A stretch of DNA of 50,048 nucleotides from sequence record MH051918; one strand, 5' to 3'. Positions 3,493-47,686 of the stretch are shown here, one piece after another. The notes beneath the pieces were generated by a model, which saw only the letters and a program-made list of their open reading frames with translations, was not told where the DNA came from and did not search any database. The stretch is from Escherichia phage vB_EcoS_IME347. How positions within the stretch are numbered: position 1 is the first letter of the stretch; the number at the start of each line of letters is the position of its first letter. The position numbers were made by a program, and so were the translations under genes.

Positions 3493-3644
3493 TGGCAACT
3501 TGGTACTTAATCGCGATCACCTATTACGCCGGGGTTCAGCCGATCCCGTTCGACTCGCACAAGGCTTGCATTGATGCGCGAGAGGTAATCAAGAGAAACA
3601 ACCCGACAACCGCAAGCTTGCAGGTTGTATGCGTTAAGAAATAG
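3492..3644 (+). CDS. small hydrophobic protein (50 aa)
   Basis: ATG overlaps upstream stop (TAATG); hydrophobic N-terminus (MATWYLIAITYYAGV); stop TAG lies inside the following motif; below track cutoff. Confidence 0.3.
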   Translation: MATWYLIAITYYAGVQPIPFDSHKACIDAREVIKRNNPTTASLQVVCVKK

Positions 3645-3690
3645 CACGAATTGCTAAACCTTCCGCAAGGCCATTTGATATAGTGGCCTT
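3640..3690 (+). promoter_or_regulatory. intergenic motif module (AATAGCACGAATTGCTAAA + hairpin carrying TGATATAGT)
   Basis: Motif at 3640-3658; inverted repeat aaggcca..tggcctt at 3667-3690 enclosing the extended -10-like TGATATAGT at 3676-3684. Confidence 0.55.
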
Positions 3691-5280: not shown

Positions 5281-5474
5281 TTAACTACGAAGATGCAGCG
5301 CGTGACGCTATCGATGGTATGCTGCCAAATTCGAAGCGTGTGGCTCACTATCGCGGTTTTAAGGGTTCACCTGTTAAACTGTATTGCGAGATTTTGAAGC
5401 TCTCAGAAGTCGATACAGCGCGTTTAGAGGCATACGATTTTAAGCGTTTTTCGATAACCATCGAAACCAAATAG
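5265..5474 (+). CDS. hypothetical early protein (69 aa)
   Basis: In-frame ATG at 5265 within track ORF 5205..5474. Confidence 0.4.
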   Translation: MDSDLINYEDAARDAIDGMLPNSKRVAHYRGFKGSPVKLYCEILKLSEVDTARLEAYDFKRFSITIETK

Positions 5475-5520
5475 CACGAATTGCTAAAAACCTATCAGGG
5501 GAATGCGCTATGATTCCCCT
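5470..5520 (+). promoter_or_regulatory. intergenic motif module (AATAGCACGAATTGCTAAAA + hairpin + TATGAT)
   Basis: Motif overlaps stop TAG; inverted repeat ggggaatgcgc..gattcccc. Confidence 0.5.
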
Positions 5521-5544: not shown

Positions 5545-5976
5545 ATGAAACATCTGGTATGCATTGTAGAAGGTTGCGGCCTGGAAGGAATCGGCGGTGA
5601 ACTCGGTCACTACATGATCGCGAAGAATGACCAAGACCGAAGCGGCGACGTTGAGATAACCTCCCGCCACGCACTCCCTTACATCATGGAGACTCTCGGT
5701 GATGGAATGTATCAGGGTTATGGCTCCAGCGCTATTTACAAGCAATACCCGATCCGCAAGCGTCTGGTTCGCGCATTCTTTAAGTACGCGCATCACGATT
5801 GCAAGCTTTCACGCAATGCGGCGAAAAGTTGGGCGCGAGCTATGGCTGACGGATATTTCTTCCGTGATGGTCAGGCGATCAGCGAAATGATTCAGACAAT
5901 CATGATCGACTATGACGGCGATTTCGGTCAAGAGTCATTCGATAGCTACGTTGCCGACGAGATCTCTTACTGGTAA
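5545..5976 (+). CDS. hypothetical early protein (143 aa)
   Basis: ATG at 5545 after GAGGACGA; ORF in track. Confidence 0.5.
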   Translation: MKHLVCIVEGCGLEGIGGELGHYMIAKNDQDRSGDVEITSRHALPYIMETLGDGMYQGYGSSAIYKQYPIRKRLVRAFFKYAHHDCKLSRNAAKSWARAMADGYFFRDGQAISEMIQTIMIDYDGDFGQESFDSYVADEISYW

Positions 5977-6590: not shown

Positions 6591-7174
6591 TGAGCAAAGT
6601 AATCATTCTCAACGCGCCGCCAGCATGTGGCAAAGACACGATAGGTTCAATCATCGCGGATATGAATCAGATTTATGGCGTTCGCATGTTGAGCTTCAAA
6701 GCGCCGATGTTCGAGATCGCCCGAGCTATCCTCGGTGATGCGAACTTTGATTATTTCATGTTCCTTTATAACGATCGGCTCCATAAGGAAAAGCCCGATT
6801 CCATTCTGAACGGTAAAAGCCCGCGCGAGTTCATGATCTGGATTAGCGAGGCAATCATTAAGCCAGAATTCGGCAATGATTATTTCGGGCGTCGAATGGT
6901 TGAGGCTGTCAAGTCAGGCACTGCCCCGGCGATTATCACGGACGGCGGATTCACTGAAGAGACAATCGCACTAATTGAAGCTGGTATTCAGGTTCACGTC
7001 TGCCGACTGCACCGCGACGGATTCACGTTTGAAGGCGACTCGCGAAACTATCTTCACCTGCCTGTGGGCTGGCAAGGCGTAAACGGCTACACCGAAGAAG
7101 ATTTCCAGTTACGTGACGGTGATCCTGATTACACTGCCAGCGTGATTACCGGGAAATACCTGCGTCACTTCTAA
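6590..7174 (+). CDS. P-loop kinase, deoxynucleoside-monophosphate-kinase-like (194 aa)
   Basis: N-terminal IILNAPPACGKDT resembles the GKDT P-loop of phage dNMP kinases (T4 gp1 type); identified by eye, not by search. Confidence 0.5.
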   Translation: MSKVIILNAPPACGKDTIGSIIADMNQIYGVRMLSFKAPMFEIARAILGDANFDYFMFLYNDRLHKEKPDSILNGKSPREFMIWISEAIIKPEFGNDYFGRRMVEAVKSGTAPAIITDGGFTEETIALIEAGIQVHVCRLHRDGFTFEGDSRNYLHLPVGWQGVNGYTEEDFQLRDGDPDYTASVITGKYLRHF

Positions 7175-7224
7175 TAGCACGAATTGCTAAAAACTCGGCG
7201 GGGTAAGCTGTTATAGTTACCCCA
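7174..7224 (+). promoter_or_regulatory. intergenic motif module (AATAGCACGAATTGCTAAAA + hairpin with TGTTATAGT)
   Basis: Motif overlaps stop TAA at 7172-7174; inverted repeat ggggtaagctg..agttacccc. Confidence 0.5.
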
Positions 7225-7253
7225 TCGAAAACAACCAATCAGAGGAAACGCGA

Positions 7254-9579: not shown

Positions 9580-9598
9580 AATAGCACGAAATGTTAAA
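9580..9598 (+). promoter_or_regulatory. intergenic motif copy (AATAGCACGAAATGTTAAA) upstream of terS
   Basis: Motif variant between the terminator and the RBS GGAGG at 9604-9608. Confidence 0.45.
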
Positions 9599-9614: not shown

Positions 9615-10139
9615 ATGGAACGGAAAGAGAAAGCGCCCGTAGTGCAGGGCGGTAATTTTAAGGAGCTATACCGAAAGAAATTCGGAACGATTATCGGAAA
9701 ATCAGCCAGCTTCACGCCTGAACAGGTTTTCGATCTGGCGGTGAAGTATTTCACGTGGGCGGAGGACAACGCAATTAAAGCCTCTGAGACAGCGAGTTTT
9801 CAGGGTGAAGTGGAGGAGTCACTCGTTCATAAACCGCGCGTGTTTACTCACAACGGCTTCCGCCTGTTCCTTGGGATCAGCGAGTCGGCGGTCACGAAGT
9901 GGCGGCGACAGGAAGATTTCGCAGAGGTGATGGAGTTCGTTGATACGGTAATCAGCGAGCAGAAATTCCAGCTTGCAGCTAACGGCGTGATTAATGCCTC
10001 GTTCATCGGGAAAGACTTGGGGATCGACAAGCCAGCGACAATCAACATCGACAACCAAGCGAACGCCACGGCGGGCGCGATCGCCTCCACTGAGTCCGCG
10101 ATGCGCGATGCGGTAGAGAGTATTCTGGATAACCTTTAA
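9615..10139 (+). CDS. terS: terminase small subunit (putative)
   Basis: ATG at 9615 with GGAGG RBS; lies immediately upstream of the large terminase gene; HTH-like segment. Confidence 0.55.
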   Translation: MERKEKAPVVQGGNFKELYRKKFGTIIGKSASFTPEQVFDLAVKYFTWAEDNAIKASETASFQGEVEESLVHKPRVFTHNGFRLFLGISESAVTKWRRQEDFAEVMEFVDTVISEQKFQLAANGVINASFIGKDLGIDKPATINIDNQANATAGAIASTESAMRDAVESILDNL

Positions 10140-14987: not shown

Positions 14988-15464
14988 ATGGCAATTGCAG
15001 CAAGCTATCAGAAAGATATGTCTATCGCCGTTCCGGGTATGGTGGCAGACACCTCCCGTTACAACATCGACGGCGCTTGCGTACTGAGCGGTGACGTTGA
15101 TATCCTCGTCGGCGTTGCGGTTCAGGTTGACAACGTTCAGGCCGTTGACGGTCACAAAGTCATGAAGCCTATGGCATCCGGCGGCAAGGCTTATGGTGTG
15201 GCGATTCGCTCCCACTTCCAGACTAAAGGCAAAGATGGTCAGATGTACTATGAAGCGGGCGGCGGCATTAACGTAATGACCTCCGGGCGCGTTTGGGTTA
15301 TCTCCAAAGATTCCACCGCTCCGGCGTTTGGTGAAACTGTCAACTTTGACGTTGACGGACAGCAGAAAGCAGACGGCGCGATCGAAACCGCATGGACTTA
15401 TGCGGGCGGCTTCACTACCTATCAGGATTTGAAGCTGGTTGAAATCCAATTGCATCAACTGTAA
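14988..15464 (+). CDS. capsid-associated protein, paralog 1 (decoration/cement-like, putative)
   Basis: RBS AAGGAG; shares YNIDGACV..GVAVQV..YGV..RS..GRVWV motifs with the next ORF. Confidence 0.5.
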   Translation: MAIAASYQKDMSIAVPGMVADTSRYNIDGACVLSGDVDILVGVAVQVDNVQAVDGHKVMKPMASGGKAYGVAIRSHFQTKGKDGQMYYEAGGGINVMTSGRVWVISKDSTAPAFGETVNFDVDGQQKADGAIETAWTYAGGFTTYQDLKLVEIQLHQL

Positions 15465-16017: not shown

Positions 16018-16100
16018 CCGGAAGATCCTGAACCGGAAGAGGGAGGCGAAACTGACCCGGAAGAAGGTTCAGAGGGTTAACACAAAAACAGTTTGACGCT

Positions 16101-16118
16101 TTAACAAAAAGTGCTATC
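16101..16118 (-). promoter_or_regulatory. intergenic motif copy (TTAACAAAAAGTGCTATC, reverse variant) upstream of the capsid gene
   Basis: Reverse complement matches the AATAGCACTTTTTGTTAA variant; followed by a hairpin plus T run at 16121-16147. Confidence 0.4.
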
Positions 16119-18767: not shown

Positions 18768-19170
18768 ATTATCAGTGGCGGCGCGAGCCGCCCTTGGGGA
18801 ATGGCTGGAGATCCCCGGAAACGAATATCCAGTGGCTTACGAGAGCGTTCCTTTTGAGCCTCCTTCGGACGGTTCCAGTTGGTTAAAATTCGACTACGTG
18901 GAGGCGGAAACCGTTCGAGTCGGACTGTCCCGCAAGTGCTCGTATTATGTGGGGATGGTTCAGGTTGGCATACACTTTGCGCCGGGGTTAGGTATGGACT
19001 CAACCCGGCTACTCGCGAAAAACCTTGCTGATTTTTTCGCAGATGGTAAAATGCTGATTAACGGTTGTTATATCGTGGAGGGTGGAGAGGTTCGCCCTGT
19101 TCAAAAATCTGTGGGCGGATGGTTCTATCCTGTTCGCTTTTATGTTCGTTATGACTCAAAGGGAGTATAA
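18757..19170 (+). CDS. tail terminator-like protein (putative)
   Basis: ATG at 18757 after GCGAGGG; immediately upstream of the major tail gene. Confidence 0.4.
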   Translation: MHYELSVAARAALGEWLEIPGNEYPVAYESVPFEPPSDGSSWLKFDYVEAETVRVGLSRKCSYYVGMVQVGIHFAPGLGMDSTRLLAKNLADFFADGKMLINGCYIVEGGEVRPVQKSVGGWFYPVRFYVRYDSKGV

Positions 19171-19868: not shown

Positions 19869-19948
19869 TTTCTGTAGAATCACTGTATCAAATCAATACG
19901 GCGCTGTTTTAACAAAAAGTGCTATCACACCAATCAGGAGAAATGACA

Positions 19949-26053: not shown

Positions 26054-26101
26054 CGCCTGTATAATGGCATCACCGATAAATAGCACAAAAGGTTAAACAT
26101 C

Positions 26102-29100
26102 ATGAATCAAAAAGTGATAAGCGGCTCAAAGGGTGGCGGCGGAAGTCCGCACAAGCCCGTTGAAATGGAAGATAACCTGATCTCCATCAACAAAATCAGA
26201 GTTCTACTCGCTGTGTCTGACGGTGAAGTAGATCCCGATTTCGATATGTCCATGTTGTACTTGGACAACGTTCCAGTGATGAACAAAGACGGAACTTACA
26301 ACTACGAAGGAATCAAGGCGGAGTTCCGCCCCGGCACTCAGACGCAGGATTACATTCAGGGGTTCACCGACAGCGCAAGCGAAGTCACTATGAACCGGGT
26401 AATCAAAACTGACACCCCGTTTAGCATCAACGTTACGAACCGGAACCTTTCGGCAATCCGAATCAAGATGTTCATGGCTCGCGGCGTAAAGGTTGAGAGC
26501 AACGGCGACAAGAACGGCGTTCGCGTTGAATACAAGGTTGAAATGGCTGTGGATGGTGGAGCTTTCGAACCTGCACTCACTGACGTGATTGACGGAAAAA
26601 CAATGTCAGGATATGACCGTAGCCGCCGCATTAATCTGCCCTCGTTCAACTCTCAGGTGATCTTGCGAGTGTCTCGCGTAACGCCGGACTCCGACGATTC
26701 CAACCTGATTGACGAGATCCAGTTGCGCAGCTATGCGGAGGTTATTGACGCGAAGTTTCGTTATCCGCTGACCGGGCTACTGTTCGTTGAGTTCGATTCG
26801 CAGATGTTCCCGAACCAGATCCCGAACATTTCAATCAAAAAGAAATGGAAGGTTGTCAATGTACCGACGAACTACAACCCGGTAACTCGTGATTACTCTG
26901 GCACTTGGGACGGAACGTTTAAAAAGGCGTGGACGAACAACCCGGCTTGGGTTCTGTACGACATTATCACCAACCAACGTTACGGGCTTGACCAACGCGA
27001 GCTTGGGATTGATGTTGATAAGTGGTCGCTTTACGACGCCGGGCGCTATTGTGATCAGATGGTTCCAGACGGAAAGGGCGGAACCGAGCCGCGATATCTA
27101 TGCGACGTGGTTATTCAATCGCAGGTTGAGGCGTTTAAACTGGTGCGCGATATCTGCTCAATCTTCCGGGGTATGAGCTTTTGGAACGGCGAAAGCCTGT
27201 CTATTGTGATCGACAAGCCGCGCGAGCCGTCTTACATCTTCACGAACGAGAACGTTGTGAACGGTAATTTCTCATACGCTTTCGCGAGTGAGAAAAGCAT
27301 GTATACGGTGTGCAATGTCCAGTTTGATGATGAAGAGAACCTTTATCAACAGGACGTGGAGCCTGTTTTCGATACTGATGCGGCTCGCAGATTCGGCAAC
27401 AACCCGACGAGCATTACAGCGATCGGATGTACCCGGCGCAGTGAGGCTAATCGCCGGGGGCGCTGGATTCTCAGAACCAATTTACGAAGCACTACGATCA
27501 GTTTTGCTACCGGATTGGAAGGAATGATTCCGCAGATTGGCGATGTTATCGCGGTGGCGGATAACTCATTCTCAAGCAACCTCACGCTTAACCTTTCTGG
27601 TCGCGTGATGGAAGTTTCGGGATTGCAGGTTTTCACCGCCTTTAAGGTTGACGCTCGCGCAGGTGATTTTATTGTCGTAAATAAGCCGGATGGGAAGCCC
27701 GAGAAGAGGACTATCGCATCGGTATCGCCTGACGGCAAGACTATACAGTTAAACGTCGCATTCAGCTTCTCTGTGGCTCCTAACACTATCTTTGCAATTG
27801 ACCGCACGGACGTAGCGTTACAGCAATTCGTTGTTACGGATATTTCCAAGGGCGACAATGAAGAAGAGTTTGTGTTTAGCATTACTGCGGTTGAGTATGA
27901 CCCGAACAAGTACGACGCGATCGACTACGGAGTAAACGTTGACGAAAGGCCTACAAGCATTGTCGATCCTGACAAGCTTCCTCAGCCGCAAAACGTGCAG
28001 ATTGAGTCCTTCTCTCGTGTGGTTCAGGGCGTAAGCGTTGAAACGATGGTTATCAGTTGGGATAAGGTTCAGTATGCGGCTCAGTACGAAATCCAATGGC
28101 GAAAGGGTAATGGCAACTGGATTAACACGACACCAACGGCGAACAATGAAACGTTTATCGAAGGCATTTACGCCGGGCAATACTTCGTTCGGGTTCGCGC
28201 TGTATCGTCGGCGGGCAATGCTTCAATGTGGTCTGAAGTTGTCAGCGCATCACTGACGGGTAAAGTCGGAGAGCCGGGTTCGCCAATTAACTTCACGGCG
28301 TCCGATGATGTTGTTTTTGGCATTCGCCTGAAATGGGGCATGCCGGAAGGGACTGAAGATACCGCATATATTGAGGTTCAGCAGTCACCAAACAACAGCA
28401 TTGAAAATGCATCACTGCTAACGCTCGTTCCATACCCTCAACATGAGTATTTCCATACTCCACTTGAGGCCGGGAAGATGATCTTCTACCGCATTCGTGC
28501 GATAGACAGGATCGGAAATGTGTCCGGGTGGACTGACCTGATTCCGGGGATTGCCTCAACTGACGTTGAGAGCATTATCGGGGAAATCAAGGTTGATATC
28601 GAAAACTCCGAGGGGTTCAAGTGGTTGCAGGAAAATGCGGTAGATGCAAACTCGAAGATTCACGGGGCGGCTGAAGCGATAATCGAAACCACGCTGGCTA
28701 ACGATCGTGATGTTCGTATTCAGCGCAAGCGGAACGGGAAGTTCACTGCTCAGTTTAAGCAGTCATTCCAGTTAATCGCAGATGAAACGCAAGCAAGAGT
28801 TGAGCAGTATCAGGAGTTACAGGCCGACTTTGACGGAAAGATAACCGCAACTTCAACTCAGCTTAACCAGGCGATCGCTAACGAAAGGGAGGCGAGAACA
28901 ACTCAGGTAAACCAGATTAGCGCAACGTTCGGCGGAAACCTTGACGATCTTAGCGATAGGGTTGATGGTGATATCGGGGATCTTAATGGAAGGGTTGATG
29001 GTGAGGTTCGGGCTCGTCAAGCTGCGATCTCAAACGTAAACCAAGCCATTGCGAACGAAACCGAGGCGCGAGTTCAGGCTATCAATGATTTGAAAGCGCA

Positions 29101-31096: not shown

Positions 31097-31609
31097 AGCA
31101 TTTTCCTCCCAAAATTAATGAATACACATATTAGCTTTTTGCCCTCGGGGAGTCAAAGTTACAGATTTTGCGGTGTAACATCTGTCTACTTTTGTAACCA
31201 AAATGAGGCGTGACAAAATTCGCTCATTTTTTAATCAGCATGACGCACCTTAAGATATAGAAAACTCCTTATAATATATATAGATAGATATAAATTGTTA
31301 TTTTACCTTTTATATATAAATTAGAGGTGTAACCGTTGTATATATTGTCACGGTGTATTTTGTGATGCGCTCAATTTTCTACATCATAATCATGTGAATT
31401 CTGTATTGCGGTATTTTTCTATAAACACAGTTACATTGTATACAGTGGTTACGCCGCAATAAAACACGCCTCAAACGCTTGATATTTATGGACTCGCATT
31501 GTCACGGGTAATTTTGTGACGCCCGAATACACTCATTGACATCGTTACAGGTTGACTAAATGCCGGGAATGGTTATACTGTCCACATCATCAACGAAGGA
31601 GATAAACGA
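31097..31609. promoter_or_regulatory. AT-rich divergent control region B with operator-like inverted repeats
   Basis: 513-bp non-coding region; GTCAC-N10-GTGAC-type elements at 31207-31223, 31345-31370 and 31498-31524; conserved block at 31423-31465 shared with region A. Confidence 0.5.
31552..31579 (+). promoter_or_regulatory. sigma70-like promoter (TTGACT-N16-TATACT) for the recombination operon
   Basis: TTGACT at 31552-31557 and TATACT at 31574-31579, 16-nt spacer, about 30 nt upstream of the RBS of ORF 31610. Confidence 0.5.
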
Positions 31610-35797: not shown

Positions 35798-35817
35798 AAT
35801 AGCACTAATTGCTAAGC
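35798..35817. promoter_or_regulatory. intergenic motif copy (AAATAGCACTAATTGCTAAG) upstream of the tail fiber gene
   Basis: Palindromic motif variant between the primase terminator and the tail-fiber start. Confidence 0.4.
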
Positions 35818-35857: not shown

Positions 35858-35881
35858 ATAAAAAACCCGCCGAAGCGGGTT
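35858..35881 (-). terminator. intrinsic terminator (- strand) after the primase gene
   Basis: Reverse complement gives aacccgc-ttcg-gcgggtt followed by a T run. Confidence 0.55.
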
Positions 35882-36824
35882 AGATTAAATCCGATGCCTG
35901 ATAAAGCTTGCGTTCCATTCCTGACCGGAAACCTCCCGGATTCGGGATTATCACCTTCAACTCCCGATCGTCCGCCATATACAGAGCTTCCTTATCATCC
36001 GGCGAACATGCAACGCGCAACTCCCTTCCTCCTCTGTACCTGTATGCAACCATTTCCAGATTGGCAGGGGTGAAGCACGTCCACACCTCCTGCCCCGTCG
36101 CAAGGTGTACTCGCTGCGAGTCAATCCAATCAACGCAAAGGTAAATCGCCTTCTCAGTAGAACCTGTCACGGCAACCGATCCGGCAGTGTGCTTCCTTGC
36201 ATAGAACGACTGCTCCCCCTCCTCATTAATGAATAGGATATTGCAAAACTCGTCGTCCAATTCATCTTCATGAACAAGGTGGCATGGAATGGCATGAATT
36301 ACCGATTCTCCGCCATTCTCCAGCGACTTCACGCCTACGGAGTACATCTTATCATCTGGTAGGAAGATCCCCTCATACGTGCTCAGTGGCGTCGTAGGGC
36401 GTAGTTCTGTCCTTTCCATTACAGCCGCGCAAGCCTCATGCTCTGCGATCGCAGCATTCACTACGGCAACCGGAGTGCGGCGAGCCTTTTTATTCGCCTT
36501 GACAATATACTCCTGCGGAACTTTACCCAAGAATCTCCCGGCAATATTGATTGCTTCGCTGTAGTCAGACCCGGAGAGTTTCATTAGCCAGCCGATACCC
36601 GTGTCGTTACCGCACGAGTTGCACACCGCGCCGCCGTCGCCCGGCTCATTTAGTTTATCAGTCCAGCGAAATCGATCTTTACCTCCGCAGTTTGGGCAAG
36701 GCTGGTGTTTCTTGTTAAAAACGTCGTTAGGTAGTCCGCAAACACTCTGCAAGATCTCACGCCACAGCCCTTTCATGTACGGAAGAACATCTTCTTTCTG
36801 GTACTGCATAAAGTTCTCGTTCAC
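35880..36824 (-). CDS. DNA primase (zinc-ribbon + TOPRIM-like)
   Basis: N-terminal zinc ribbon CPNCGG...CNSCGN and downstream acidic TOPRIM-like motifs; 314 aa. Confidence 0.7.
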   Translation of the reverse strand: MNENFMQYQKEDVLPYMKGLWREILQSVCGLPNDVFNKKHQPCPNCGGKDRFRWTDKLNEPGDGGAVCNSCGNDTGIGWLMKLSGSDYSEAINIAGRFLGKVPQEYIVKANKKARRTPVAVVNAAIAEHEACAAVMERTELRPTTPLSTYEGIFLPDDKMYSVGVKSLENGGESVIHAIPCHLVHEDELDDEFCNILFINEEGEQSFYARKHTAGSVAVTGSTEKAIYLCVDWIDSQRVHLATGQEVWTCFTPANLEMVAYRYRGGRELRVACSPDDKEALYMADDRELKVIIPNPGGFRSGMERKLYQASDLI

Positions 36825-36845
36825 TGAATTATCTCCAATAAAAAA

Positions 36846-36900
36846 CGCGTAACAGGAGTTTACCCGCTACGCGCTTTTGTGTTTTAGCTATTTGTGCTCT
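36846..36900 (-). promoter_or_regulatory. hairpin plus reverse-orientation motif copy at the end of the HTH gene
   Basis: On the - strand: motif GAGCACAAATAGCTAAAA (36883-36900, overlapping the stop of gene 36884..37327) followed by stem cgcgta..tacgcg and a T run. Confidence 0.45.
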
Positions 36901-37327
36901 CGACTTCATCCTTTCGAACTACGCGCATGAACTTGCGGTTCTTGCATCGTTTTTCAAGGCACTTTCCGTTAGAGTCGAACTTGAGATCGAATCGCAGCCA
37001 GCTTGCGCGATACCCGGTACAACCCTGACGACGATACGCGCGATGCGCCGCCTCCGCTCCCTGCCAAGAAATCATGCCGCGAACTTTCCATTCGTTCACA
37101 TTCTGATTTGTTACCTTCAGGGCTTTCGCCGTGGCGGAGGGGGAGCCGTAGAATTCGATCAGGGCGTCAAGTCTGGCGCGTAGTCCGGCGCGAACCTCAT
37201 CTTTCAGGATGTAGAATCCGCATCGCTTGCGAGGCTTTACATCTTTGCCCCGTCGTGTACCATTGTTCCCGTTCAGGTGACGACGATCGATTTCCCCGGT
37301 TGATTCTGCAATACGCTTGATTGTCAT
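36884..37327 (-). CDS. HTH-domain protein (YdaS/Cro-like), putative regulator
   Basis: Central segment GSPSATAKALKVTNQNVNEWKVRGMIS resembles a YdaS/Cro-type helix-turn-helix; divergent from the helicase gene. Confidence 0.4.
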   Translation of the reverse strand: MTIKRIAESTGEIDRRHLNGNNGTRRGKDVKPRKRCGFYILKDEVRAGLRARLDALIEFYGSPSATAKALKVTNQNVNEWKVRGMISWQGAEAAHRAYRRQGCTGYRASWLRFDLKFDSNGKCLEKRCKNRKFMRVVRKDEVESTNS

Positions 37328-37339
37328 AATAAATTCCTC

Positions 37340-37359
37340 AATAGCACTTTTTGTTAAAA
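37340..37359 (+). promoter_or_regulatory. intergenic motif copy (AATAGCACTTTTTGTTAAAA) upstream of the helicase gene
   Basis: Variant motif followed by inverted repeat gcgtg..cacgc enclosing TATTATAC. Confidence 0.45.
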
Positions 37360-37420
37360 CTAACTAATCGATGCGTGTATTATACAGTCAACGCACGAGT
37401 AACGCAAAGGATTAAGAACA

Positions 37421-39472
37421 GTGAAAATCACCCAAGAGACACGAGAGTATTTCCGCACTCAAAACATTAAAAAACAGATCGCAATGCTCGGGGAGGATTA
37501 CATCCGACGCACTCAGGAGCGCTTCCGGGTTGGCGATATCACCCCTTACGAATATCAGGTTGCGGCATACTTTGAGATCGCGAAGCGACTCGGGAAAGAG
37601 TACGAACATCCATTTTACGTAAAAGCCTCAGTATCTGCGGGCAAGACGATTATCTTCGCGATGGTGGCGAAACAATGTCAGGCGATGGGGCTGAAAATGC
37701 TCGTTCTCGCTCGTCAAGGTGAGATTGTGGATCAGGACAGTGAGGAGATTGACAACTTCGGAGTTCCGAATTCCATCTTCTCCGCATCGCTCGGAATCAA
37801 GTCCTGCCACTTCCCGATCGTGGTTGGCTCCGAAGGTACTGTAGGCAATGGCCTGTTCAATGAGTTATCCGATTTTGTCCCGCACGTAATCGGGATCGAT
37901 GAATGTCACCAAGTCGATTGGGAGGACGTGGCGAAGGCGATCGAAGGCAAAGAGTCCTATGCGCAAATGACCACGGATAAGGGATCTATCGTAATGGACG
38001 GCGATATTCCTCTGATTGGTGATGATGGATTGCCAGTTACCGGAACGAAGCGTTCTCAGTACACCGTAATCATCGTCGAAATGATGCGCCGTTGCCGGGA
38101 GAGATACGGGCATGAGTTGCGCGTGTTTGGCATGACGGGATCGGAGTATCGCGGCGTCGTTCCAATTCTCGTTGAGAACAAAAAGCTCGTTGGCTTCTGG
38201 CGTGAGCAGGTGACGAACATTGACACGAACTACCTGATTGAGTTCGGCTCAGTTGTCCCAACCGTGTTTGGCTCAACCGAGGGGGTTCATTACGATCTCG
38301 ACAAGTTCAAGGCGAGCGCCGAAGATGGTGTGTCGGACTTCTCAGAGAAAGAAATGAAGGCGATGGAGGCCGAAATCGTCAAGGATAAATCCTTGACCGA
38401 GAAGATTATGAAGATGGTTGCGAAGGAGGCGGAGAAGCGCAACGCCGTGCTTATCACCTGCGCCGGGCAGCGCCATTGCAAAGAAGCTGCGGCGGCATTG
38501 CCGCCGGGAAGCACTTACGCGATCATTACGGACAAGACAAGCCCGAAAGCACGACAGAAGATTTTGGACGACGTTCGCGCCGGGAAAATCAAGTACACCT
38601 TTCAGGTAATGGCGTTAACGACGGGCGTAAACGTTCCGAATTGGGACTTCTCCGTTATCCTACGCAAGATCGGCTCGCTGACATTGCTGATTCAGCTTTT
38701 AGGGCGCGGAATGCGACTGCTGAAGAAATGGCAAATTGAGCAGGGAATGGTTAAGACTGACCATCTTGTATGGGACTTCGCCGGAACTATGGACGAGTTG
38801 GGGCAGCTTTATTTCGATCCAATTTTGGAACAAGCTCAATATCAGCGCCGTTTCGAAAACGGGAAAGACCCGAAGAAATGCGAATTATGCGGTCACGAAA
38901 ACAGCTTCTATGCGCGTCGTTGCGTGAACGTTATCAACGGCCAGCGCTGTGAGCACTTCTGGACATATCAGACCTGTGAAGATCAGGTAGACGAGAAAAC
39001 AAACAAGGTTCTCGTTAAGGGCTGCGGGGCGAAAAACGACGTGGTAGCGCGTGTTTGCCGTTGCTGTGACGTATCGCTTGTCGATCCTAACCTGAAGTTA
39101 TCCGGCAAGGCGTACACGAAAAACGATTGGTACGACGTGAAACACTTCGAAGTTAAGTTGACGAAAAACCAAAAGGGGATAATATTCCATTACGTCCTTG
39201 ATAATGGCGAGGGTGAATTTAATGCATACGAAAAATTCTTCCCGGAGTCCGATGCGAAAGTGTGCGGGACGCTGTGGAAAACGAAAGGTGTATTGCCGCA
39301 CGTATTCGATCCGAAGATGCGCAAATACTTCATTGGGATGAAGAAAGCAATCAAGATCCTGCAATACGCACACCACATTAAAGCGCCTGTTAGAGTCACT
39401 CACCGCCGCAACGCGAAGAAAGAGGACTTAATCAGCCGCAAAGATTTCGGAATGGAGGAAATTCCAGAATGA
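37421..39472 (+). CDS. superfamily II DNA helicase (DExH-box)
   Basis: Walker A VSAGKTIIF and DExH motif GIDECHQ; C-terminal Cys-rich zinc-finger-like region; GTG start as in the track. Confidence 0.75.
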   Translation: MKITQETREYFRTQNIKKQIAMLGEDYIRRTQERFRVGDITPYEYQVAAYFEIAKRLGKEYEHPFYVKASVSAGKTIIFAMVAKQCQAMGLKMLVLARQGEIVDQDSEEIDNFGVPNSIFSASLGIKSCHFPIVVGSEGTVGNGLFNELSDFVPHVIGIDECHQVDWEDVAKAIEGKESYAQMTTDKGSIVMDGDIPLIGDDGLPVTGTKRSQYTVIIVEMMRRCRERYGHELRVFGMTGSEYRGVVPILVENKKLVGFWREQVTNIDTNYLIEFGSVVPTVFGSTEGVHYDLDKFKASAEDGVSDFSEKEMKAMEAEIVKDKSLTEKIMKMVAKEAEKRNAVLITCAGQRHCKEAAAALPPGSTYAIITDKTSPKARQKILDDVRAGKIKYTFQVMALTTGVNVPNWDFSVILRKIGSLTLLIQLLGRGMRLLKKWQIEQGMVKTDHLVWDFAGTMDELGQLYFDPILEQAQYQRRFENGKDPKKCELCGHENSFYARRCVNVINGQRCEHFWTYQTCEDQVDEKTNKVLVKGCGAKNDVVARVCRCCDVSLVDPNLKLSGKAYTKNDWYDVKHFEVKLTKNQKGIIFHYVLDNGEGEFNAYEKFFPESDAKVCGTLWKTKGVLPHVFDPKMRKYFIGMKKAIKILQYAHHIKAPVRVTHRRNAKKEDLISRKDFGMEEIPE

Positions 39473-39894
39473 TTACAGATAAGGGCGATTATTTAGAGTT
39501 TTACGAGCGCGACCCGAGCGACACGAGAAAGGAGGTAGTTCACCAAATTGAGAGCACTTCCTTTTTGAAAGTTCGACACCCTGACTTGCTGTTTTGGCAT
39601 AGTGTCAACGAGAACGAGAAGAGCAAGGCGACCGCAATGATTGATCAGCAATCCGGCTTATTGAAGGGAGTTAGTGACTTCGTTTTCCTGATTGGTTTCA
39701 ATCACCGATACCCGTTCGCCGCAATCGAACTTAAGCGCGTGAATAAGTCCGGCAAAGGCAAGGCGTCACCCGTAAGCGATGAACAGAAAGCCTTCTTGCG
39801 GAAGGTCAGGGAGCGAGGCGGGTTCGCCGCAGTAGCCTACGGGGTGGAGCAGTTAAAACTCGCAGTAGCTGAAATGCTCAAACAGCACGAATAG
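39469..39894 (+). CDS. VRR-NUC domain nuclease
   Basis: 141 aa; GVSDFV...AIELKRVN...EQKAF pattern typical of VRR-NUC; ATGA overlap with the helicase gene. Confidence 0.6.
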   Translation: MITDKGDYLEFYERDPSDTRKEVVHQIESTSFLKVRHPDLLFWHSVNENEKSKATAMIDQQSGLLKGVSDFVFLIGFNHRYPFAAIELKRVNKSGKGKASPVSDEQKAFLRKVRERGGFAAVAYGVEQLKLAVAEMLKQHE

Positions 39895-39954
39895 CTAAAA
39901 CAGCCGGAAAGGAATCCGGCATAATCACCACATCGAAACAACGGAGAGAAACAA

Positions 39955-41737: not shown

Positions 41738-42877
41738 ATGTCAATGTCAAAAATCACAACCGAACAGCTTATCGAAGAGCGCGAAAACGGCCTGACCCTT
41801 CGCGAGATCGCGGAGAAGTACGGGATGCATATCCGCACGGTTGAGGCTCGACACGCGAAGCTTGCAAAGGAAGGTCACTTCCACGGCAACAAGCACGTAG
41901 CCGCCAACGTTCCGACCGGGTTCGCCGTAAAAGGTACGTCCGTCATGATTGACGCCGAAGGCAACGAAAAGGTTCGCTGGGTTAAGACCGATCAGGACAA
42001 AGAGAAGATTTACCAACTCATGCAAGCGGCGCAGGTTGCATTTTGCGAAGAGTTGCCGCGCGAAGCCCCAACCCCGATCGAAATAAACAAGCGATTCGAC
42101 GAGGATTCGCTGGCGCTTTACCCGGTATTCGATCTTCATATCGGCGCACTGGCGCACAAGCACGAGTCCGGCGAGAACTACTCCACCGATATCGCGGAAG
42201 ATGTTCTGAACAAGTATTTCGGCTATGCAGTCGGCAAGGCTCCTAACGCACAAAAAGCCGTCCTGTTAATCGGCGGTGACTTCCTGCACTCTGACGGCCT
42301 TGACGCTGTTACCCCGGCAAGCGGTCATGTTCTGGATCAGGACTCGCGTTATGCCAAACTGGTTTACGTCGCAATCCGCGCTACTCGCCGGGCGATCGCT
42401 AAGATGCTGGAGAAACATGCTGAGGTTGAGGTTCAGATTATCGAAGGCAACCACGATCAGGCAGGTATGATTTGGCTACGCGCTGCAATGGCGGCATACT
42501 ACGAGGACGAGCCGCGCGTGAACGTTGACGTTAGCCCGATGATTCTGCACAAAACCCGTTGGGGCAAAACGCTGTTAGGCTACACTCACGGTCACACGAT
42601 GAAGAAAGCGGACACTCGCCTTGCAGCAATGGCGGCAGACTTCCGCGATGATTTCGGCGCGAGCAAGTACGTTTACACTCACAGCGGTCATTGGCATCAC
42701 CAGACGATCACCGAGCATACGTTGGGTATCGACGAGGTTCACGGTCAACTCGGGGCGAAGGATGCTTATGCGGCTCGCGGCGGCTGGCGAGCGTACCGTC
42801 AAGCGGCTGTTATCGTGTACTCAAAAGAGTTTGGCGAGATCGGGCGCTTTATCTACCGTCCAGAAATGACGGCGTAA
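41738..42877 (+). CDS. HTH-fused calcineurin-like metallophosphoesterase
   Basis: N-terminal HTH-like LTLREIAEKYGMHIRTV; phosphoesterase motifs DLHIG, GGDFLHSD, GNHD, GHTH/GHWH in canonical order; RBS AAGGAA. Confidence 0.65.
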   Translation: MSMSKITTEQLIEERENGLTLREIAEKYGMHIRTVEARHAKLAKEGHFHGNKHVAANVPTGFAVKGTSVMIDAEGNEKVRWVKTDQDKEKIYQLMQAAQVAFCEELPREAPTPIEINKRFDEDSLALYPVFDLHIGALAHKHESGENYSTDIAEDVLNKYFGYAVGKAPNAQKAVLLIGGDFLHSDGLDAVTPASGHVLDQDSRYAKLVYVAIRATRRAIAKMLEKHAEVEVQIIEGNHDQAGMIWLRAAMAAYYEDEPRVNVDVSPMILHKTRWGKTLLGYTHGHTMKKADTRLAAMAADFRDDFGASKYVYTHSGHWHHQTITEHTLGIDEVHGQLGAKDAYAARGGWRAYRQAAVIVYSKEFGEIGRFIYRPEMTA

Positions 42878-47666: not shown

Positions 47667-47686
47667 TTTAGCAATTCGTGCTATTT
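47667..47686 (-). promoter_or_regulatory. intergenic motif copy (reverse; AAAATAGCACGAATTGCTAAAA on - strand)
   Basis: Exact consensus in reverse orientation, followed on the - strand by hairpin ggggtgat..atcacccc. Confidence 0.5.

Follow-up and report, generated by a model that had tools for sequence, protein, structure and literature searches.

A Cro-fold regulator orthologous to T1 Pir and its divergent promoter region, with a marbox-like motif, in Escherichia phage vB_EcoS_IME347

Escherichia phage vB_EcoS_IME347 (sequence record MH051918) is considered here through a stretch of 50,048 nucleotides, referred to as the window, which is essentially the complete genome of a T1-like phage. Its closest relatives are Citrobacter phage IME-JL8 and Escherichia phage SRT8, both Drexlerviridae, at about 80% nucleotide identity. 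The gene under study, an orthologue of the T1 regulator gene pir, lies between a DNA primase gene downstream and a divergently transcribed helicase gene of superfamily 2 (SF2), an order common to T1, TLS, Rtp and the most distant members of the family (Table 1). A sequence-only reading of the window had described a helix-turn-helix (HTH) protein at this position as a candidate regulator, divergent from the helicase gene across about 90 bp of DNA said to contain a copy of a repeated motif and a hairpin. The open reading frame (ORF) and its divergence from the helicase gene both hold, the gap measuring 93 bp (37328-37420), and the motif copy is indeed found within it, at 37341-37358 (+). The hairpin did not survive analysis: its fold of -5.8 kcal/mol has a z-score of -0.74, with 41 of 200 shuffled sequences equally stable, and this score rules out a hairpin in the gap as a regulatory structure of the pir locus.

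The protein is 79% identical to T1 ST23 (Orf23) over the full 147 amino acids (aa; E = 1e-92) and matches phrog_2856, 'transcriptional regulator' (E = 5.9e-73), while its gene takes the slot that ST23 occupies in T1 between the primase gene ST24 and the helicase gene ST22. The features that mark the Pir family are present, namely full-length homology, the position between primase and helicase, a 3' terminator, the NGNNGTRRG arm and a Cro-like HTH core. Judged by this homology, the gene is the orthologue of T1 Pir, a family-wide Cro-fold HTH regulator of T1-like (Drexlerviridae) phages. Relatives of Pir occur in 823 phage records, all of them 44-53 kb genomes of phages that infect enteric bacteria. 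Among the 1.84 billion representative proteins searched, full-length relatives make up only about 20 clusters, and the weaker matches are Cro/YdaS-like proteins of 80-100 aa in which only the core aligns. As early as 2006, the annotation of phage Rtp described the corresponding protein, Rtp52, as an HTH regulator resembling T1 gp23.

T1 Orf23 has been designated Pir, for 'prophage induction regulator', by Laganenka et al. 2019 (PMC6737242). With green fluorescent protein (GFP) reporters, T1 Pir was found to activate the promoters Phol and Pdam and to repress its own promoter as well as PrecE, and knock-down of T1 pir by CRISPR interference (CRISPRi) abolishes induction (PMC6737242); the CRISPRi guide used in that work maps within the window ORF, at 37212-37231, with 3 mismatches. 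The T1 pir promoter is in addition repressed by cyclic AMP-CRP (cAMP-CRP) and by the phage protein Orf65 (PMC6737242). Because T1 Pir has been studied experimentally, the designation of the window gene as a candidate regulator is correct and was already known, regulation having been demonstrated for the T1 orthologue. T1 Pir and the window protein are alike in full-length sequence, gene position, N-terminal arm, control-region layout and 3' terminator, although the two phages are different species. Promoters and Pir are not discussed in the 2026 KanT1 paper. The gene is one more member of the experimentally characterised Pir/PHROG 2856 family, and the finding as originally stated is an ordinary one. 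The protein itself adds little: hundreds of T1-like genomes have this regulator in their annotation, and in T1 it has been characterised.

The HTH nature of the protein is settled by its modelled structure, not by the sequence score. The Pfam profile P22_Cro aligns with aa 55-81 (E = 1.8e-4; 21.7 bits, cut-off 30.2) and YdaS_toxin with aa 54-83 (E = 4.7e-4; 20.4 bits, cut-off 30), whereas an AlphaFold2 (AF2) model based on an alignment of 25 homologues reaches a mean predicted local distance difference test score (pLDDT) of 84.9 and is confident over residues 38-140. The model shows the all-alpha five-helix Cro fold with the HTH formed by helices 2 and 3, and a Foldseek search agrees with a Cro-like HTH. 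Of the YdaS/Cro-like HTH segment proposed earlier, the HTH is real by the model and Foldseek, while the sequence match to Cro and YdaS is weak. The protein has a single Cro-type HTH, with no AraC-family Pfam match and no two-HTH domain of the AraC type.

The best-conserved part of the protein, overlooked in the sequence-only reading, is an N-terminal basic arm with the lowest mean entropy, 0.63 bits. Among the 25 homologues its invariant columns are D14, R16, N19, G20, N21, G23, R26, D29 and R33, and with a pLDDT of about 61-63 the arm is probably disordered. Helices 2 and 3 of the HTH are among the most variable segments, averaging about 1.5 bits (recognition helix, 1.51). Twelve different residues occur at position 74; within the recognition helix, S/T73 and Q75 show fair conservation. 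The Cys-containing C-terminus, once listed as a feature of the protein, loses that standing in the comparison. C128 alone is invariant in the homologues among C36, C103, C123 and C128, and because it is the only invariant Cys, there is no Cys cluster; a Zn-binding C-terminal cluster is thereby ruled out.

All-alpha Cro proteins (Xfaso-1 Cro 3bd1, N15 Cro 2hin/6on0, P22 Cro 1rzs; PF14549) together with YdaS (PF15943) form the set with which Pir is compared. Like Cro, Pir is a small phage-encoded early regulator that has the Cro fold, is encoded at divergent promoters and, in T1, represses its own early promoter. Unlike Cro, it is about twice as long, has a C-terminal extension and an invariant basic arm at the N-terminus that is specific to the family, matches Pfam below threshold, belongs to a virulent-type phage without a CI partner, and also activates some promoters (in T1). 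The comparisons further yielded no palindromic operator for Pir: a conserved palindrome was sought in the control region across lineages and none was found.

The pir/helicase control region was surveyed in 55 distinct regions, taken from 80 related loci and three very distant relatives. Read rightward from the pir ATG, it contains the pir Shine-Dalgarno (SD) sequence, the motif ATAGCACTTTTTGTTAAAAC, a 17-bp spacer, the hexamer TATTAT, the helicase leader and SD sequence, and the helicase GTG. The -10 hexamers of pir and of the helicase are reverse complements that overlap on opposite strands with an offset of 1 nt. An overlapping divergent -10 pair of this kind is present in all 55 regions, with a -35-like hexamer for pir at 16-18 bp that reads TTGAAT in the T1 group and TTGACT in the TLS group. 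Because the two -10 elements overlap, RNA polymerase would be able to occupy only one of the promoters at a time. The motif directly adjoins the pir SD sequence, a juxtaposition kept in all lineages, and its centre is TTTT in 54 of the 55 regions. Because the DNA that it occupies encodes the pir leader, whatever binds there should tip transcription toward the helicase gene and away from pir. As a whole, the region forms a compact, strictly conserved divergent-promoter switch, and the strict overlap of the pir and helicase promoters appears not to have been described before.

Table 1. Genes, protein segments and predicted control elements at the pir locus (positions in the window; TSS, transcription start site)
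Feature	Position	Strand	Remarks
pir orthologue	36884..37327	-	ATG start; 147 aa; coordinates include the stop codon
Divergent SF2 helicase gene	37421..39472	+	GTG start; ResIII/Helicase_C domains; equivalent of T1 ST22
DNA primase gene, downstream of pir	35880..36824	-	Zn_Ribbon_Prim, E = 2.3e-15
HTH of Pir, codons 54-83	37079..37168	-	Helix 63-70, recognition helix 74-83; within Cro-like core, aa ~43-112
N-terminal basic arm of Pir, codons 14-37	37217..37288	-	Motif IDxRxxNGNNGTRRGxDxxxR; modelled as disordered
pir Shine-Dalgarno GAGGAA	37334..37339	-	7 nt upstream of ATG; read from sequence
Marbox-like motif ATAGCACTTTTTGTTAAAAC, 20 bp	37341..37360	+	Faces helicase; within DNA of pir 5' leader
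Helicase -10 TATTAT	37378..37383	+	Promoter scan and spacing analysis; predicted TSS ~37390
pir -10 TATAAT	37379..37384	-	Putative promoter, read from sequence; predicted TSS ~37372
pir -35-like TTGCGT	37402..37407	-	17-bp spacer; overlaps helicase SD region; 3/6 match
Marbox-like motif AGAGCACAAATAGCTAAAAC	36881..36900	-	Overlaps pir stop codon; faces primase; placed alike in all lineages examined
pir terminator, 16-bp hairpin and U-run	36835..36878	-	Arms 36863-36878 and 36841-36856; inverted repeat I1

At its other end, pir runs into a hairpin whose predicted RNA fold (-23.7 kcal/mol, z-score -6.06) is matched by none of 200 shuffled sequences, and a terminator is annotated at the equivalent site in T1. 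Because the gene has a promoter of its own and a terminator just past its stop codon, it is presumably a self-contained, monocistronic leftward transcription unit that ends at a strong hairpin terminator. The 6-nt loop of this hairpin (36857-36862) reads TAAACT, a -10-like sequence located 18 bp after AGAGCACAAATAGCTAAAAC, and this arrangement suggests that a motif promoter dedicated to the primase gene is nested in the pir terminator, with a predicted TSS near 36850 (-). Overlap of the two elements (36835-36900, minus strand) was seen in all lineages looked at.

The motif beside pir belongs to a set of repeats that has been recorded in a related genome. The 2024 re-annotation of phage TLS lists 18 intergenic copies of aaATAGCACnnnTTGnTAAAA, oriented with transcription, and leaves their function unexplained (PMC11447400). 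The window motif is this same repeat, present in about 30 copies of the form ATAGCAC-N4-TGCTAAA (for example at 969-986, 3641-3658, 5471-5488, 39882-39899 and, on the minus strand, 47667-47684). The marbox is the E. coli binding site of MarA, SoxS and Rob, and its classical 19-mer, AYnGCACnnWnnRYYAAAY, is reportedly that of Martin et al. 1999. With at most one mismatch, the 19-mer in this form has 28 matches in the window against 0.88 expected. The 15-mer gcannwwntgnnaaa, which has also been given for the E. coli marbox (PMC12052159), has 23 exact matches in the window against 0.49 expected, and exact marbox matches number 20 in T1, 19 in TLS, 14 in Rtp and 1 in lambda. The pir-proximal copy is exact to the 15-mer and differs from the 19-mer at one position. 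A position matrix built from 196 sites in 21 lineages is conserved at the positions specified by the marbox and loose at its N positions, and it is asymmetric, with C7, A17 and A18 lacking symmetric partners. A palindromic dimer operator (TAGCA-N5-TGCTA) is ruled out as a description of the motif, the matrix being asymmetric and mirroring the marbox. The motif subtypes (G, T and A) have also been considered as a regulator code and rejected, since orthologous promoters such as that of dam switch subtype freely between lineages; the pir-proximal copy is the exception. The dam promoter of this phage carries a subtype different from that of T1, so the set of promoters responsive to Pir may differ between the two phages.

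Promoters of class II in the mar/sox/rob regulon are those in which a forward marbox overlaps the -35 region, with its centre between -36 and -55 (PMC12052159); RamA lies at about -41 at micF (PMC8811837). Read directly from E. coli K-12, the micF promoter has ACAGCACTGAATGTCAAAAC followed after 18 bp by TAGAAT, with +1 eight nt further on and the marbox centre at -41.5, and the marbox of the mar operon, ATGCCACGTTTTGCTAAATC, resembles the phage T-subtype. The distance from motif to -10 is exactly 18 bp in 16 of 23 window copies; in 20 other lineages it is 18 bp at 72 of 114 sites and 17 bp at 17 more. The helicase-side motif is in forward orientation 17 bp from TATTAT, which corresponds to class II geometry given a TSS predicted from the -10 hexamer. 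Because the motif matches the marbox and stands 17-18 bp upstream of a -10 element, the helicase promoter is most likely of the host-activator type. The phage elements and class II promoters such as micF have in common the consensus (gcannwwntgnnaaa / AYnGCACnnWnnRYYAAAYn), the forward orientation, the 17-18 bp to the -10 hexamer, a centre near -41 and the lack of a proper -35 hexamer. They differ in that the phage motif occurs in about 30 copies per 50-kb genome, has additional conserved bases (A3, T11, T12), is accompanied by variable inverted repeats around the -10 element, and in some copies is antisense or adjoins start codons.

A different parallel, the gp71 'stoperators' of mycobacteriophage L5, has been suggested for the TLS repeats (PMC11447400). 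In both systems a phage-encoded HTH regulator is accompanied by numerous asymmetric sites that follow the direction of transcription. However, L5 stoperators sit inside transcription units, whereas most copies of the present motif stand at a fixed, promoter-like distance upstream of a -10 element, and the phage motif, unlike the stoperators, equals the site of a host activator. The repeated motif thus appears, by sequence and spacing, to fit the host marbox in class II geometry, a correspondence seemingly not described before; in the literature searched, nothing was found that links marboxes or MarA/Rob to T1-like phages. A MarA homologue was sought across the window, and none is encoded. The motif beside pir would accordingly be one of about 30 marbox-matching copies and not a private operator of Pir.

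The account that we regard as probable is that Pir acts as a Cro-like early regulator and that the marbox type includes the helicase promoter and most of the other early and middle ones. Pir would be made early from its own host sigma70-type promoter (TTGCGT-17-TATAAT), a step partly shown in T1, and would bind DNA via its Cro-like domain, perhaps with help from the basic arm. It would then shut off its own promoter and that of recE and modulate expression of dam and of the holin gene, as has in part been shown in T1, damping early promoters as infection proceeds in the manner of a Cro-type early regulator. The helicase and most other early and middle promoters would be served by host RNA polymerase with an activator bound at the marbox, and occupation of the pir-proximal marbox would favour helicase over pir transcription. 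A more specific and rather tentative form of this account, which we would not yet rate an even chance, is a host-gated toggle. MarA, SoxS or Rob at the class II marbox would bring polymerase to the helicase promoter and occlude the pir promoter, Pir would counter-regulate the same 93 bp, possibly at the TTTT marbox, and the roughly 30 TLS-type repeats would all be marboxes.

The sequence-only reading had suggested that the protein may regulate the replication genes or the motif modules themselves, and as a general rule the latter finds no support in reporter data from T1. Porf65, which carries a perfect motif, is reported to be Pir-independent, and reporters driven by Pdam and Porf65 give a signal in cell extract or in uninfected cells (PMC6737242), so that motif promoters work without a phage protein. 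Phol and PrecE respond to Pir although neither has the motif, PrecE being a canonical TTGACT-16-TATAAT promoter that is kept in most lineages. Since responsiveness to Pir in the T1 reporters does not follow the motif, Pir, a known regulator, is probably not the general reader of the repeats. A narrower version may hold, in which the targets of Pir are T1 Pdam and the TTTT-subtype motif in the DNA of its own leader.

The strongest competing explanation, to which we give roughly one chance in four and no better, holds that Pir does read the motif, at least its TTTT subtype, activating the helicase (in T1, dam) from a site at about -41 and blocking pir from the copy in its own leader. All lineages in the comparison, the most distant members of the family among them, have both Pir and the motif, and the copy that adjoins the pir SD sequence is held at TTTT while orthologous promoters elsewhere switch subtype; the fairly conserved S/T73 and Q75 and the invariant arm would also suit a specific reader. 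The asymmetry of the motif (C7, A17 and A18 unpaired), on the other hand, would be easier to reconcile with a reader that binds as a monomer with two HTH motifs than with a Cro-type dimer, and its conserved positions are precisely those that the marbox specifies. The recognition helix, moreover, is among the most variable segments of the protein while the motif is invariant, also in relatives as distant as E = 1e-24 to 1e-30, and the dam promoter of this phage has a non-T subtype. To this are added the Pir-responsiveness of Phol and PrecE without the motif and the activity of motif promoters without Pir. These most distant relatives keep an identical layout, and for this reason they do not separate a motif that follows Pir from one that follows the host.

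Other candidates for the reader and for the operator of Pir were rejected. T1 Orf65 as a general motif reader is ruled out, as its homologues occur in 64 phage records against 823 for Pir and it has no match to a DNA-binding domain. T1 Orf65 represses Ppir and activates its own motif promoter (PMC6737242). Its orthologue in the window (5545-5976, plus strand) matches phrog_10642 and has no Pfam match; because homologues are confined to those 64 records, Orf65 is a lineage-specific accessory. The inverted repeats around the -10 elements vary from lineage to lineage even where the HTH helices are nearly identical, which likewise speaks against a regulatory hairpin at this locus. Comparison of the pir and recE promoters for a lineage-specific operator common to both gave nothing consistent.

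An effect exerted mainly through a host protein is quite improbable. The arm would contact RNA polymerase or MarA/SoxS/Rob and thereby shift promoter choice globally, a view that accommodates the concentration of invariant residues in the disordered arm (NGNNGTRRG) and not in the HTH, the lack of a recognisable site common to the Pir-responsive promoters, and effects on motif and non-motif promoters alike. The core, however, is a canonical DNA-binding Cro fold, there is no sign of a protein partner, and contacts with DNA are common for the basic N-terminal arms of HTH repressors. That the protein is a component of a YdaS-type toxin-antitoxin or cell-division-inhibition system and not a regulator of phage genes, as the weak Pfam YdaS_toxin match might suggest, can practically be dismissed: the match is sub-threshold, the gene lacks a partner, solved structures of YdaS were themselves entered as HTH proteins of the Cro/antirepressor type, synteny is conserved in a lytic-phage replication module, and direct reporter evidence from T1 indicates regulation.

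Several points weigh against the account of a Cro-like regulator among marbox-type promoters. Both the Cro and the YdaS match lie under the curated Pfam gathering thresholds, and a tandem-linker AF2 model of the homodimer has a predicted template modelling score (pTM) of 0.38 and no confident interface. The functional statements made about the window protein are all carried over by analogy from the 79%-identical orthologue, and the T1 work itself was done with reporters on plasmids and with T1 in a 'lysogenic' state that is disputed (PMC6737242). The TSSs are predicted from the hexamers, and binding of MarA, SoxS or Rob at the phage motif is something that we infer from the sequence match. In T1, furthermore, the Pir-responsive motif promoters (Pdam and Ppir/Phel) are of the T-subtype and the unresponsive Porf65 is of the G-subtype; together with the TTTT centre of the pir-proximal copy in 54 of 55 regions, this pattern means that Pir may recognise that copy after all. 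The TTTT constraint could also be explained by an A-rich leader of the pir mRNA.

Beyond the pir locus, some motif copies adjoin the starts of late genes, as at 9581-9598 (+), before the ATG of the terminase small subunit at 9615, and at 26080-26097 (+), before the ATG of a tail protein at 26102. A further copy at 35799-35816 (+) lies in reverse orientation at the SD sequence of the tail-fibre gene. These three copies stand too close to the genes concerned for a class II promoter to fit in between; all have counterparts in T1, and that of the tail-protein gene is found in TLS as well. Such copies may serve as roadblocks or have another function. The late structural region also contains antisense copies of the TTTT subtype at 16100-16117 (-) and 19908-19925 (-), the second of which has an extended -10 and faces a terminator. 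Their T1 equivalents lie at 15069-15086 and 18833-18850, and one is kept in TLS at 15025-15042. Modules built around the motif, such as that at 7174-7243, include a variable inverted repeat that flanks or contains the -10 element (for example GGGGTAA...TTACCCC) and a conserved leader, CATCGAAACGAAAC, ahead of the SD sequence; some of these hairpins are terminators in the T1 annotation.

The recE promoter of the window, at 31552-31579 (+), is a canonical sigma70 promoter (TTGACT-16-TATACT) without a marbox and is conserved in most Drexlerviridae lineages. Its T1 counterpart is repressed by Pir and cAMP-CRP (PMC6737242). Upstream of recE, a 512-bp AT-rich non-coding gap (31097-31609) holds the second copy of a 59-nt repeat (311-369 and 31423-31481, 80% identical) that contains palindromes of the TGTATACA type; the role of this repeat could be that of an origin, a pac site or a regulatory element. 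Also conserved in the family, and a second candidate for DNA binding, is a protein of 379 aa encoded at 41738-42877 (+). It combines an N-terminal HTH resembling sigma70 region 4 (weak Pfam matches) with a metallophosphatase/'DNA repair exonuclease' (phrog_704).

The marbox correspondence, if true, would couple early and middle transcription in T1-like phages to the host regulon that responds to antibiotic, oxidative and bile stress, and the phage marboxes may also titrate MarA, SoxS and Rob. Should these activators drive the motif promoters, the infections caused by an entire family of enterobacterial phages would rely on the multiple-antibiotic-resistance regulon or disturb it, which would be relevant to phage-antibiotic combinations and to the behaviour of phages in the bile-rich gut.
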